A stretch of DNA of 64,000 nt from Candidatus Bathyarchaeota archaeon (GCA_963715865.1 OY970280.1:576001-640000), one strand, 5' to 3'; positions 14,105 through 48,628 are shown, counted from the first letter of the stretch. Program-made: numbers and translations. The notes: generated by a model from the sequence alone, not told the origin.

Positions 14105-15093
14105 TTAGCTTGTTAGACAGTTCGTAATTTTGGCTATGCATTCACCGTTCGTGATTACCGGCGCGTATCTTGTCGTTAAAATTGGCTTAACAAGTTCTTT
14201 GCTCTTGAGCAATTCAACATCAGTGGTCAATGGGCGTTTTAATTCTCTGGTGCTATTGAGGAACAAGCCTGTTCCTTATGGCTACCATCTAAGAAAAATC
14301 CAAGCGGCGCTTGCACTTAATCATAAAAGGCTGCTATGGTTGCCTTCTGATTAATATATGCCGCGCTTAGGTTTTTGCCCGTACTGATGCAATACACTGT
14401 ACCCGCAGGCACAACGTTGCTCCAGCAAAGTTCCCATTCGCCAAGCATCTGCATTGGTTTCTGGGTAATTGGGCTGATAACGTCGTGGTATAAGCTGTAG
14501 TTCGGCAAGTTTTTGATGTCTCGTTTTTGCACTGGATTGCAAAGTATCGTATCCATCAGGAAGTCAGCTTTATTGATTAATGCTTCTGCATTATTGAAAT
14601 CTTCCATACCAGGCGTGCCTGCCTTCGTGAATTCAGTGCCTGTGACAGTGATAGTTTTGCCTGTGCAAGCGTTACTGTTTGCTCCTGGGCATGCCAGATC
14701 AATGACGCCTGAGCAATCTAATTCGATTTGGAAGGCCAACCGCCTCGCAAGTCTTTTGAGTTGCTGGTTAATCACTGGTAGGTCAACGTCTTCAACGACT
14801 TCCTTGGGGATTTCAACGGATTCGCCGCGTTTATACGGGCTTATGGTAACGTAAGACATCGGTGTATAGTCAACTGGAACTGCAGTGCCAGGCGCGATTT
14901 CGCTAATTCCCGTGCTTCTTACACCTGCTTCTTTAACGTAAGTTTTTGTCCTTCCAGATTTTAAGACGTCGTCAGTGAACAGCCGCTTCGTTATCAAGTT
15001 TGGCATAGTCAACTCAAGAATTACCTGATGCAATTCGGGGTACTGAATGGCTGCTGAATCAACAAATGCTAAAGCATCTTCATTAAAACTCAT
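14105..15093 (-). CDS. Major capsid protein (HK97 fold), 298 aa, spliced: join(15093..14356, 14310..14289, 14241..14105)
   Basis: Exons 738+22+137 = 897 nt. Spliced C-terminus ...STGKNLSAAY/APLGFFLV/KRPLTTDVELLKSKELVKPILTTRYAPVITNGECIAKITNCLTS*. The unspliced ORF stops at 258 aa inside intron 1. Confidence 0.92.
14242..14288 (-). other. BHB intron 2 in the MCP gene (47 nt, frame-shifting)
   Basis: Central helix UCUU/GAGA, bulges AG^A and AU^U, intron stem UGGU/ACCA with apical AGGAACA/UGUUCCU hairpin, outer helix UUUU/AAAA. Confidence 0.9.
14311..14355 (-). other. BHB intron 1 in the MCP gene (45 nt, contains an in-frame TAA)
   Basis: Central helix GCAU/GUGC, bulges AU^A and AA^G, intron stem UUAAUCA/UGAUUAA, 9-bp exon-exon helix with one bulged C. 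Confidence 0.92.
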
Positions 15094-16693: not shown

Positions 16694-18075
16694 CTAGAAA
16701 GTGATTTTTGTCGGCATTTGCTTTTGATTTCCCTGGTTCTCGCCAAAATTATCGAAAGTAGATTGCTGCGGCTGCTTCAAGTTACCGCTGATCGTTTCTG
16801 GTAAGCCAAGTTCAGCGCGGGCTTCCGTGTTGCCCATAAGCATGCCATTATATAAATCGAGAACACGCTGCATTTTCACGTCTGTCGGCGGCTCCCAAAT
16901 AGGCTTCCACTTCATCCTCGGAATTTTATCCGCAGTTATCAGGCTTTCAGGAAAATCGCCGCGCAAAATTAACGGAAACAACTGCGTCTCGTAAACGCCG
17001 CTTTTGTGTTTTTGGCGCATTCTGAGCCGCGTAATAAATTCCTGCATGACCACTTCCGCAGTTGCTCTATTCGTGCCTTCACTTTCGCCTAGGAATATTT
17101 TGGGTACGCCAAGCTGGGAATCACGCTGCCGCTCCAAATATTGAATCCACCATTCCACCCTAAGATCGCGAGTCATCGAGCCCTGAGGCGTAACCTTGAC
17201 CTCTCCACTCAAAACCAAATCCGTACCTTGATCGCGCTGTGACACTTCGATCCAAAAGCGCCTGCATTTTTTCAGCGCTCCACGGCTGCTGCTGCACCTA
17301 CAGCTCCGTCTCCACCGCATGAAAGCACAAGCATAGGCTTCGTGTAAACCTTCATTATTTTAGCCATATCAACTTGAAAATCATCAATCAAGGCTTGAAC
17401 ATGAAGAATTGAACGTAACGCAGAAGTTCCATAGGCATTTTCAAACCGCCACGATTTAACACCATTTAAAGTCCTGTAAATTTCTTCAGGATCAAAAATG
17501 ACTGGTGGATAAGAAGTAAGTTGAGCATAGCCAAAAATGTTCTTATAGCAATCTTGGCGAATTCGCATATCGCACGGATCCAAAGTTTTCAGCCATTCCA
17601 CGCGGCTTGAATCTTCATCCATGCACGGCTCCGTATAGCTTGAACCAAAGACCAAAGCATCAGTTTCCTCACTGCGCATAGTTGAAAGTAGATCATGCGA
17701 CTCAATCCATTCTTCCAAAAAATCTCGGAAAGTAGCTGTTCCGCCTTCGAGAACAAAGCCGTTAGAAATTGTTAAGATTAACCTAACATCAACGATAGCT
17801 TGAATTCGCGGAGTAAACGAGTACAAAGCCTTGTACTTCGGCAAATCCTCGATTGGAGTAACTCCCCAAATGCGATCCCAAAGCGACGTATAAGGACTGC
17901 TGACAAAGCCTATACCAGCCGCCTTCAAAGTGTAGTTGTTAACGTACTGCATAAGATTCCAGTCGCCGCGCCAAGCCACAGGAACTTCCCTTTCACGCTG
18001 CGCAACGGCTATTTCATTTGGCACGTTACGCAGCGGATTAGGCATAGTCAGCGACAAATCTTTCCTAAGCGGCAT
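16694..18075 (-). CDS. Portal protein, split by two apparent single-base insertions near 17,290 and 17,250
   Basis: Portal motifs (YGTSALRSIL, QLGVPKIFLG, EARAELGL). Frames join as ...GGDGAVGA/QQPWSAEKMQALLD/EVSQRDQGTD if one base is removed at each site. Confidence 0.85.
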
Positions 18076-18089
18076 TTACATTTTTTCAC

Positions 18090-18302
18090 CTACTGCTTTT
18101 TCCTCGGTTTCTTTTCTTCTTCAACGTCGGCGGTTATTTGCAAGTCATCCAAAACAACGTCTTGCATCAAGTCAACACCGTTAATTTTTACGTGCAACTT
18201 ACCCATCCGCACGTTTGCAACTTCAATACCAAGAACCTTAACGATTTCGTCCTTGGCATTTGCAGACAACAAAGTTTTTTCCATTTTAATCATCATCATC
18301 AA
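18090..18302 (-). CDS. Hypothetical protein between terminase and portal
   Basis: 70-aa ORF overlapping the terminase stop. Confidence 0.55.
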   Translation of the reverse strand: MMMMIKMEKTLLSANAKDEIVKVLGIEVANVRMGKLHVKINGVDLMQDVVLDDLQITADVEEEKKPRKKQ

Positions 18303-19630
18303 CTATTTTTTTCCTGATCACTGCGACGCCAACGCCTGAGGAAGGCAACGGAGACCGCGCAGCACCATAACACGCCAAAGCCATGCTCCAGAAGACATCA
18401 TCATGCCCGCCTTCAGGATGACTAAACCGCAAATGCCCCGTCTTCATCAACTCGTACTTTTCAATGTTCAATTCAGCCGTCAAATCAACATCTTCAATCT
18501 TTCGGGCTGGAACATAAGGAATCTTCACTTCACCGCCACGCATCTTCTCACGCAATATCGTGGCCATCTCCTCTTTGACTTTGAACCGTGAAAGTCACGC
18601 CCAGCAACGCCCTGGATTCCGCTGCGCACCATATCCTCAACAATATAGTTGCCAACACCGGTAACATCCGCATACACGGCTCGAATCGTTTTCCAACGGT
18701 CCTGCAGGCTCTTAATGTACCCGATTACTGAAGCATATTCGGTCTTAAGCGGAAAACGGTGAACATGAATCACCCGCAACAACGACCCTTGCTTCTCAAC
18801 CACCAGGACCACACTGAAATCCTGTTCCTTGCCAAAATCTACGCCAACATAAAACTCGCCTTGAGGCAAGGCCTGAAAATCAAGAGGCTGCAAGTTACTG
18901 TCAATACAGGTAACAATAAGGCTCTGCGTAAGCCAAGCATCAACATCCTCAACGAATTCAGCCATAAACTCCCGCTGAAAACGCTCAAACGGCAACTGAG
19001 ACCGCATCTCATCAATAAAACTCTGCTTAACAAGCCCGCTGCGCACAACATCCTCGCAGGTTATAGCATGCTTACTAAAATCTTTGCTCTGACACATACG
19101 GTAAAAAACGCTGTCTTTACTCCAAGGCGTGCTCAGGCGATCAAGGCGCCATCCGTCGTAGATAGCATCGGATAAAGCACATTATAGAAAACGAGCTCAT
19201 CATCCTTGAAGAACGCGCTCTCGTCAGCAAATAACTTGGTGCGCAGTGTAACCCCTGAGCATCTGAGGACTATTAGGCAAAGCAACAATACGCGATACCA
19301 TTCTTGAACCGAACAGTCGTTCTTTGCAACTTATCAACAAGTATCAATCTGCTTTTCTTTCGGTAAGCTCGCCGAGAAAGTCTTGAATGCGATCGGACAT
19401 AATCATGCTCTGCCGCAACAGTCGGCGCCACAATCAACGTCAACGTCTTCGGATAGCGTCAAGCGCAAACCAAATCGCCCTCAAAGCAATACACGTGGTT
19501 TTCCCAGCTTGCCTACTCCAGCGAACACAATCCGCTTGCTCTCATCCCGCAGAAGCTCAGCCTGATAAGCCTTAACATCAAAGCCAAAGAAGTCCCCAGC
19601 AACAAACAAAACTGGATCTTCAGGAGTCAC
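18286..19630 (-). CDS. Terminase large subunit, broken by many single-base indels
   Basis: Reconstructed Walker A region (RWSRQAGKTT), LIVAPTLRQS, Walker B (xDESAF), STPW, and nuclease motifs YVGVDFG and HDDVFW, spread over ORFs 18525..19097, 18286..18567 and shifted frames upstream. Confidence 0.85.
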
Positions 19631-20045
19631 TGAGCTTTGGAGCTGCCTCCTGCTGGTTTTGCTGCTCCTTGAACTGCTTGATTTCCTTGATTTCCGCGCT
19701 CAACTGATTGAGCTTCTTGATCTCATCAACCAACTGCTCCAACTTCGCTAAATCCTCATTAAACTGACGCTCATCATACCCTCGCGCCAAATTACCCATA
19801 ACCAACGCGACATGAGCTGCAATATGAGCCCACATCTGCCGTTGCTTAGGCGTTATCAATTCCTCTTTCCCACCAACCCTTTGAGAAGTAACCTTGCCCA
19901 CAGCAATTGATGTTGCAAGAGTAAACAACTCATCCAACTTATCAATCCACTTTGACCTGAGGACTTGCGTATCACGCCTCGCGGTTCGCTGAAGCTGGAA
20001 AATACGCCTCTTAACCAGAACAGTAAACCCAGGATTACCCCTCAC
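19620..20045 (-). CDS. Probable terminase small subunit
   Basis: Helical 141-aa ORF overlapping the TerL start. Confidence 0.55.
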   Translation of the reverse strand: MRGNPGFTVLVKRRIFQLQRTARRDTQVLRSKWIDKLDELFTLATSIAVGKVTSQRVGGKEELITPKQRQMWAHIAAHVALVMGNLARGYDERQFNEDLAKLEQLVDEIKKLNQLSAEIKEIKQFKEQQNQQEAAPKLSDS

Positions 20046-36799: not shown

Positions 36800-36907
36800 T
36801 GGCGGGCGGGGAGGGATTTGAACCCTCGACCCCCAACTTAGGAGGCTGGTGCTCTATCCGTACTGAGCATCGAGAAAGAGTCATGAGTTGGCCCTCTTTA
36901 CTCGCCC
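36800..36907 (-). tRNA. tRNA-Arg(CCT) with a 30-nt intron at non-canonical position 9/10 (36869-36898)
   Basis: Spliced cloverleaf: D-stem GCTC/GAGC, anticodon loop CTCCTAA, T-arm GAGGG-TTCAAAT-CCCTC, discriminator G, encoded CCA; acceptor stem has an A6:C67 mismatch. Confidence 0.9.
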
Positions 36908-48512: not shown

Positions 48513-48628
48513 GCCGGGGTCTCCTAGCCAGGCAGGGAGCAAGCCTGGAGATGCTTGCAGAAAAGCAAGCACCAAGCAGCTTGTGGCCTCTCGGGGCCGC
48601 GGGGGTTCAAATCCCCCTCCCGGCGCCA
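48513..48628 (+). tRNA. tRNA-Ser(GGA) with a 27-nt intron at canonical position 37/38 (48551-48577)
   Basis: Acceptor GCCGGGG/TCCCGGC, long variable arm, discriminator G, encoded CCA; intron stem TGCTTGC/GCAAGCA. Confidence 0.92.

Follow-up and report, generated by a model that had tools for sequence, protein, structure and literature searches.

A probable BHB intron at a recurrently occupied site in the major capsid gene of a tailed provirus from Bathyarchaeia

The window, by which we mean the whole stretch of 64,000 nucleotides that was analysed, carries an interrupted gene on its minus strand. The gene encodes an HK97-fold major capsid protein and belongs to the head module of a tailed provirus in a Bathyarchaeia chromosome. 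The host genome is a single contig of 2.35 Mb, and the relatives of the capsid protein are all labelled Bathyarchaeia. The best homologue is P0001, an intron-less Bathyarchaeia protein of 298 amino acids with 96% identity. It matches PF25209 (Phage_capsid_4) with 28.4 bits against a cut-off of 27, and exon 1 of the window gene alone scores 24.2 bits. An AlphaFold2 model of P0001 has moderate confidence (mean pLDDT 60.9), and its top Foldseek matches in the PDB are HK97, encapsulins, and phage capsids, with E-values of 4e-8 to 1e-6 and TM-scores of ~0.5-0.6. Neighboring genes on the same strand encode the terminase large subunit (phrog_5909, E 7e-19), a tail tube protein (PF18906), and an HK97-gp10-like protein (PF04883). 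A portal-like gene is also nearby, and it is colinear with those of relatives. From ~23.9 kb in the window the genes are those of the host and include a Y-family polymerase and FttA. The PF25209 match, the HK97 fold, the head-tail neighbors, and the host flank together identify an integrated tailed virus and mark this gene as the one for its major capsid protein.

The capsid gene appears as two open reading frames on the minus strand, one of 258 amino acids (15093..14317) that closes at a TAA, and a second at 14266..14105 in a different frame. Its exons and introns are listed below in window coordinates, followed by the elements of intron 2, which were read from the sequence except for the internal hairpin, which comes from the folds.

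14356..15093, minus strand: exon 1, 246 codons with the C-terminal end ..NLSAAY, defined by the ORF list, homologues, and junction alignment
14311..14355, minus strand: intron 1, 45 nt, with a BHB found by the scanner and in the minimum-energy fold; excision restores AAY/APLG
14289..14310, minus strand: exon 2, a micro-exon of 22 nt, encoding APLGFFL and the first base of a Val codon
14242..14288, minus strand: intron 2, 47 nt, a probable phase-1 BHB intron after residue 253
14105..14241, minus strand: exon 3, the remainder of the Val codon, KRPLTTDV...CLTS, and the stop
14298-14295, minus strand: UUUU, exonic 5' strand of the outer helix of intron 2
14294-14291, minus strand: UCUU, exonic strand of the central helix, which covaries with the intronic strand over 11 introns
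14290-14288, minus strand: AG^A, 5' bulge
14287-14284, minus strand: UGGU, inner helix
14276-14270 with 14265-14259, minus strand: internal 7-bp hairpin, AGGAACA and UGUUCCU around the loop GGCU
14251-14248, minus strand: ACCA, inner helix
14247-14244, minus strand: GAGA, intronic strand of the central helix
14243-14241, minus strand: AU^U, 3' bulge
14240-14237, minus strand: AAAA, exonic strand of the outer helix

Removal of the two introns restores the protein exactly. Joining 15093..14356, 14310..14289, and 14241..14105 gives 897 nt and 298 amino acids, and this product results when both introns are cut after the second base of each bulge. The junctions are the same as in intron-less homologues. 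In P0001 they read NLSAAY/APLGFFL/VKRPLTTDV, identical to the window, and the same residues span both junctions in 16 further proteins of 296-300 amino acids. A preliminary description of this DNA had claimed that removal of intron 2 shifts the gene into the frame of VKRPLTTDV, and translation after deletion of 14288..14242 indeed gives ..FFL-V-KRPLTTDV. The nearest relative at the DNA level, L040, aligns up to 14369 and resumes at 14239. The window is longer by exactly 92 nt, which is the sum of 45 and 47.

Incomplete processing would give shorter proteins. The predicted product of the unspliced message is truncated at 258 amino acids. Removal of intron 1 alone is predicted to give 269 amino acids, with the stop provided by a TAA spanning the 3' junction, and skipping of the micro-exon 246. 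The capsid exons contain no frameshift or stop. Compared with L040, exons 2 and 3, which lie downstream of the in-frame stop, have a dN/dS of 0.053/1.29, and exon 1 has 0.039/1.25, values that span the whole lineage since the L040 split (dS ~1.25), as do the codon comparisons below, and do not date the insertions. Exons 2 and 3 thus appear from these substitution rates to be as constrained as exon 1.

Both introns have the form of a BHB. The sequence and helix reported earlier for intron 2 agree with the minus strand at 14299..14231, and the scanner returns the same motif. The central helix UCUU:GAGA has 4 bp, as described, and lies between the two 3-nt bulges AG^A and AU^U. In intron 1 the central helix is GCAU:GUGC and the bulges are AU^A and AA^G. 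Its inner helix has 7 bp, and a 9-bp exon-exon helix contains one bulged C. Intron 1 also includes an in-frame TAA. Bases of exon 2 contribute to the outer helices of both BHBs. The scanner required four central pairs and counted outer and inner pairs. Within the capsid gene, introns 1 and 2 are its only matches with at least 4 inner pairs and a length below 60 nt.

Folding supports intron 1 completely and intron 2 in part. The minimum-energy fold of the 161-nt region containing both introns has an energy of -48.5 kcal/mol (z -3.66). It includes the complete BHB of intron 1 and the 5' bulge, central helix, and inner helix of intron 2. When the 69-nt region of intron 2 is folded in isolation with ViennaRNA (-16.3 kcal/mol, z -2.4), the 5' bulge and the central and inner helices are again present, and the 3' bulge and the four A-U outer pairs are absent. 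The full motif including these outer pairs lies 2.6 kcal/mol above the minimum, so the outer part of the structure is allowed and not predicted. In terms of the strict hBHBh' form, the inner helix UGGU:ACCA of intron 2 is in the minimum-energy fold, and the four outer A-U pairs are possible by pairing rules.

The motif by itself is not significant, since loose BHB-like motifs occur ~1.4 times per kb per strand in the host genome. This frequency was counted for motifs of 15-60 nt in which all four central positions pair (4/4), with a minimum of 3 outer and 4 inner pairs. For any one pair of boundaries fixed by homology, a motif of this kind would arise with a chance of 1.3e-5 to 3e-5. Both inserts have such a motif by pairing rules at boundaries set by homology, with the canonical cut positions.

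A survey of capsid relatives in species genomes, IMG/VR, and metagenomes covered 198 loci and 137 distinct proteins. Most of these genes are uninterrupted, and the interruptions that do occur fall at four sites. The introns at all four have canonical bulges and a canonical central helix.

Site A, after residue 27: L063 3084..3140 (57 nt), L068 3084..3113 (30 nt), L109 3084..3114 (31 nt), and L103 at the same site
Site B, after residue 201: 24-nt introns with an 11-bp exon helix in L098 (1295..1318), L101 (1130..1153), L170, L172, and L180
Site C, residues 253/254, the site of intron 2 of the window: 11 introns of 26-68 nt
Site D, the site of intron 1 of the window: 45 nt, in the window only

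The preliminary description had proposed a survey for variants with zero, one, or two introns. Most of the genes have none, some have one, and among the surveyed loci only the window has two. The introns at site A have the motif CGAG UU^A ... CUCG AG^A and an outer helix with one mismatch. This mismatch caused them to be missed by the strict scan, and they were recognized as canonical by pairing by hand and by a relaxed scan. At site B, a 10-bp exon helix is kept, with compensatory changes, in the intron-less near relatives L084, L096, L091, and L083. This fits either a hairpin that existed before the intron or the footprint of a recent precise loss. The longer genes of L029/L189 and L190/L200/L201 were considered as possible intron carriers and rejected, as the additional sequences are in-frame protein insertions.

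Besides the intron in the window there are ten at site C, inserted at the identical codon and phase in distant capsid genes with ~45-50% amino acid identity. All 11 begin with an A after a 5' bulge NN^A and end with G(C/A)GA and a bulge A(N)^U. Pairing is complete in the central helix, at 44/44 cells. This helix shows a double compensatory change, in which exonic UCUU occurs with intronic GAGA in the window and UCGU with GCGA in the others. The changed pair, U-A in the window and G-C elsewhere, follows the exon codon. Inner pairs 1-4 are also paired throughout, with 3, 1, 5, and 3 pair types, respectively. Some of the site C introns are on independent JGI metagenome contigs, showing that the feature is not peculiar to one assembly. 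In a separate sample of 401 Bathyarchaeia species genomes, 14 have a match at E <= 1e-10, and 12 of these hold 15 complete capsid genes. Site C is interrupted in six of the 15 (the window, G187 twice, G342, G346, and G366).

The window belongs to a clade of 33 in the capsid tree, from which the frameshifted copies L017, L039, and L147 were excluded. The other 32 members, including the sister L040, are intron-less. The remaining site C introns are found across the deepest branch in two or more places, and at least three gains or losses are needed to account for the distribution. Site C is thus a recurrently occupied site for putative introns in this capsid family. It had been suggested earlier that the two neighboring insertions mark an insertion hotspot. 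The suggestion is supported for site C, with its 11 introns and at least three gains or losses. The site of intron 1 is occupied in the window only. The interiors of the site C introns are wholly different even between near relatives (L197, L211, and the L027 group), and for this reason a hotspot and an ancient intron with many losses are inseparable. The recurrence may be due to either of these or to spread by recombination, and the three are not separated by the data.

The exon flanks in the window appear to be adapted to the introns. Forty-five intron-less relatives of the clade of the window encode the same peptide with other codons. If these genes had the window introns, their exons would pair with each other over 0-1 bp around site D and over 0-2 bp around site C. 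In the window itself the helices have 9 bp with one bulged C and 4 bp, respectively, and they are formed through synonymous codons (CUA AGC GCG ... GCG CCG CUU GG at site D, and UUU UUC ... GUA AAA at site C). The codons of exon 2 are unique to the window compared with the 45 relatives. The codon choice and the dN/dS values suggest that, while the window allele carried its introns, selection acted on the protein as well as on the splice structure.

The host genome encodes the expected splicing machinery. It has two EndA-family genes (PF01974, 100 and 80 bits) with open reading frames of 184 and 183 amino acids. They lie in the regions G000 C1:742977-743219 (minus strand) and C1:1187424-1187678 (plus strand). 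Inspection by eye shows that one has a Tyr-His-Lys pattern and that the other lacks the His, and the two paralogues are probably a catalytic and a structural subunit. RtcB is also present, at C1:2027402-2028712 (PF01139, 593 bits). The host cbf5 gene (G000 C1:549111-550154) contains a 24-nt BHB intron at 549340..549363, located 26.6 kb before the window, with the motif CUCU AG^A ... AGAG AA^A and an outer helix of 1 bp. This intron splits the codon of the catalytic Asp, and its removal rebuilds GTL-D-PKVTG. The host presumably splices this mRNA intron, which has a weaker outer helix than intron 2.

Searches for a donor or a relative of intron 2 gave only short matches. The earlier claim that it resembles neither intron 1 nor the tRNA introns of the host is borne out. 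The longest word shared with intron 1 is 5 nt, there is no similarity to the host tRNA introns, and the top hits elsewhere in the 2.35-Mb genome are 13-mers (E ~1). The proposed blastn-short search was run with both introns against the whole host genome, and only 12-13-mers with E ~1 were found. Exact 19- and 23-mers of the introns have no matches in IMG/VR. When 400 Bathyarchaeia species genomes were searched by BLAST with the 161-nt region, the only matches were of 18-20 nt, in G027 and G079. These were rejected as donors, as they lie in unrelated coding DNA (..EAIRNRL.. and ..EAIRKRL..) and their number is that expected by chance. In IMG/VR and the 400 Bathyarchaeia genomes, the exact intron 2 is known from one assembly. 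The site C introns differ in their interiors between near relatives, so the dissimilarity of intron 2 tells little about whether they share an origin.

Group I and group II introns of phages are ribozymes of hundreds of nucleotides, often with homing endonucleases. They resemble the capsid introns in that they interrupt essential virus genes and have a patchy distribution among relatives. However, intron 2 is only 47 nt long and would rely on protein enzymes of the host. An Rfam scan of the capsid gene found no family at the gathering score. A group I or group II intron was rejected on the basis of this result and the length of the insert.

Overall it appears likely that 14288..14242 is a genuine archaeal BHB intron of the capsid pre-mRNA, spliced by the host EndA and RtcB and located at a recurrently occupied site. 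The anatomy of the gene, the exact restoration of the protein, the conservation of the motif among relatives, and the host machinery are observed, and from these we infer cutting and ligation in vivo, circular products, and a holding role for the micro-exon. A look-up of RNA and DNA sequencing runs for the stretch listed none. In the transcript, the exonic UCUU would pair with the intronic GAGA, leaving a 3-nt bulge on each side. The host EndA would then cut after the second base of each bulge, between 14289 and 14288 and between 14242 and 14241. Intron 1, 22 nt upstream, would be cut by EndA in the same manner. RtcB would ligate exon 1, the 22-nt micro-exon, and exon 3 to form the mRNA for the 298-amino-acid capsid protein, and the two excised introns would leave, probably as small circles. 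During the reaction the micro-exon may stay positioned through the 9 bp that it forms with exon 1 and the 4 bp with exon 3. The BHB shape of the insert implies that the virus probably needs the tRNA-splicing enzymes of its host to make its capsid. A broader proposal is more tentative. The structural genes of tailed viruses in Bathyarchaeia may carry BHB introns as a class of mobile or recurrently gained elements that prefer certain insertion points, 253/254 above all, and the dependence on host enzymes might serve as a timing, host-range, or anti-defense device, so that the introns would not be neutral passengers.

One alternative is that intron 2 is a relic in a dead provirus, perhaps spliced at one time but now without present function in a capsid gene that is unexpressed or unneeded. 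The condition of the neighboring genes is consistent with this. The terminase large-subunit gene (window ~20000..18290, minus strand) is colinear with the intact P0037 (452 amino acids) at ~88% identity, but 10 frame corrections are needed, for seven extra and three missing single bases. These breaks lie outside homopolymers, near 19527, 19459, 19419, 19373, 19351, 19296, 19229, 19134, 18605, and 18577. The portal-like gene (18075..16694, minus strand) is split into two overlapping open reading frames of 267 and 208 amino acids. It is also colinear with intact relatives, being a single open reading frame in L015, L040, L041, and L044, and it has at least two 1-nt frame breaks, near 17295 and 17246. 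No integrase was recognized among the ORFs scanned, and only a single copy of this capsid allele is known. The frame breaks may mean that the provirus is defective or that the consensus is poor where reads of related proviruses cross-map. If the provirus is defective, intron 2 need not be under present selection. On the other hand, the capsid exons are intact and have a dN/dS of ~0.03-0.04. Ten indels at ~88% identity to P0037 would be odd for natural decay and look more like consensus error from cross-mapping, and frameshifted capsid genes occur similarly at two other MAG loci (L017 and L039). Even in a dead provirus, EndA should cut a transcript with this motif. A relic is unlikely. The indels in the terminase and portal-like genes lower confidence in the current use of the intron in this cell, not in its identity as a BHB intron. 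Introns were rejected as the cause of the terminase breaks, as these are 1-nt indels, and a BHB scan of the terminase region found only chance-level loose motifs.

It is very unlikely that intron 2 is a small mobile or repeat element that kills the gene and whose likeness to a BHB is accidental. This genome does have many loose BHB-like motifs, and the outer helix of intron 2 is weak. However, the boundaries are the canonical cut sites in two inserts, each with a chance of ~1e-5, and the exon flanks are adapted. There is no second copy in the genome, unlike what is expected of a repeat element, and no terminal repeats or target duplication are seen in the sequence. Furthermore, the motif persists through compensatory changes in eleven independent inserts that share one nucleotide position.

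Still less credible is that the RNA is uncut and that the ribosome skips the gap by bypassing it or by shifting frame during translation, as happens with gene 60 of phage T4. The gap at intron 2 has a hairpin and is about as long as that of gene 60. However, a ribosome that left the message at the UUA preceding the gap and landed on the one at its end would omit the conserved Val, while BHB excision is exact, and intron 1 has no visible matching take-off and landing codons. The 3-nt bulges and the 4-bp helix are constant over introns of 26 to 68 nt, a geometry that bypass does not need. An assembly artefact, with the 47 nt absent from the real DNA, is just as hard to credit despite the many small indels in neighboring genes, as consensus errors are 1-2 nt and not structured inserts of 45 and 47 nt with adapted flanks, and similar introns are present in contigs of several other assemblies and metagenome collections.

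The probable BHB intron in the capsid gene can be compared with known archaeal systems. The cbf5 pre-mRNA of Crenarchaeota contains a BHB intron with lineage-specific gain and loss (Watanabe et al. 2002; Yokobori et al. 2009, PMC2738675), and splicing has been confirmed for cbf5 and for no other gene according to PMC2738675. The host of the window carries that very cbf5 intron. However, cbf5 is a housekeeping gene of the cell, interrupted by a single intron at a single site, while the window has a viral structural gene with two unrelated introns that are 22 nt apart around a micro-exon, and the capsid family has at least four sites. Splicing of cbf5 has been shown experimentally, whereas that of the capsid introns is predicted. 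PMC7714728 states that the BHB motif had previously been found in one mRNA, that of cbf5, and adds one substrate from Haloferax: the BHB-processed HVO_1309 mRNA of Haloferax volcanii, which is cut by the splicing endonuclease in vivo and in vitro. This is similar in that an mRNA is a substrate of the archaeal splicing endonuclease, but it is a cellular message and not that of a viral structural gene.

The introns of archaeal tRNA and rRNA, at canonical and non-canonical positions, share with the capsid introns the BHB motif, the cut positions in the bulges, and the expected enzymes EndA and RtcB. After splicing, the outer helix of the capsid product would enclose a loop of 7 nt, much as in an anticodon loop whose intron sits at 37/38. 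In contrast to tRNA and rRNA, the capsid substrate is the open reading frame of an mRNA, so that excision must preserve the reading frame, and the capsid introns have no similarity to the tRNA introns of this host. Among viruses, variants of the rudivirus SIRV1 have putative 12-bp 'introns' in open reading frames (Peng et al. 2004, cited in PMC2738675), and PMC2738675 notes that splicing was not demonstrated and that coding regions may tolerate the inserts. On that account, they resemble the capsid introns as short inserts in protein genes of archaeal viruses that have been suggested to be introns. They differ in that each capsid insert contains a stop or changes the frame, appears to form a full BHB, and would have to be excised. 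A literature search on archaeal viruses, capsid genes, and BHB or other introns found nothing relevant beyond these unproven SIRV1 inserts. A BHB intron in a capsid gene is not described for any archaeal virus in the literature searched.

In the literature searched, introns of archaeal protein-coding genes come almost solely from a single cellular gene, and here an essential viral structural gene appears to have two. The wider capsid family has them at four sites in many independent metagenomes, and gene callers truncate or mistranslate the genes that carry them. The proposed dependence of the virus on host EndA and RtcB becomes directly testable. In addition, the presence/absence polymorphism at one nucleotide among close viruses provides a natural system for the gain and loss of BHB introns, a question that concerns tRNA introns too.

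Several minor observations were made. The same chromosome has a second capsid paralogue (L002, G000 C1:1706602-1707540), which is intron-less, encodes 313 amino acids, and is 47% identical over exon 1, indicating that the host holds a second related provirus. Many terminase homologues in databases are 340-362 amino acids long compared with ~455 (P0039, P0046-P0048, P0054, and others), and some may be truncated by unrecognized introns or frame breaks. ARAGORN with default settings predicts no tRNA anywhere in the window. Its intron option yields a tRNA-Ser(GGA) with a 27-nt intron at 48513..48628 (plus strand) and one doubtful call, and a partial Rfam tRNA match (model positions 10-63) is found at 36811..36868 (minus strand). 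In the same-genus genome G383, locus L214 (G383:C74:1-400) has capsid homology from residue 255 (RPLTTDV..), 131 nt from the start of the contig. The sequence upstream of residue 255 is unrelated to the capsid gene, which could reflect a long intron, rearrangement of the DNA at site C, or a break in the assembly. At L197, the site C BHB intron is 30 nt long, in frame, and free of stops. The protein P0033 has been translated through it and has ten extra residues (NVTIIYGDGE), showing that gene callers hide such introns.
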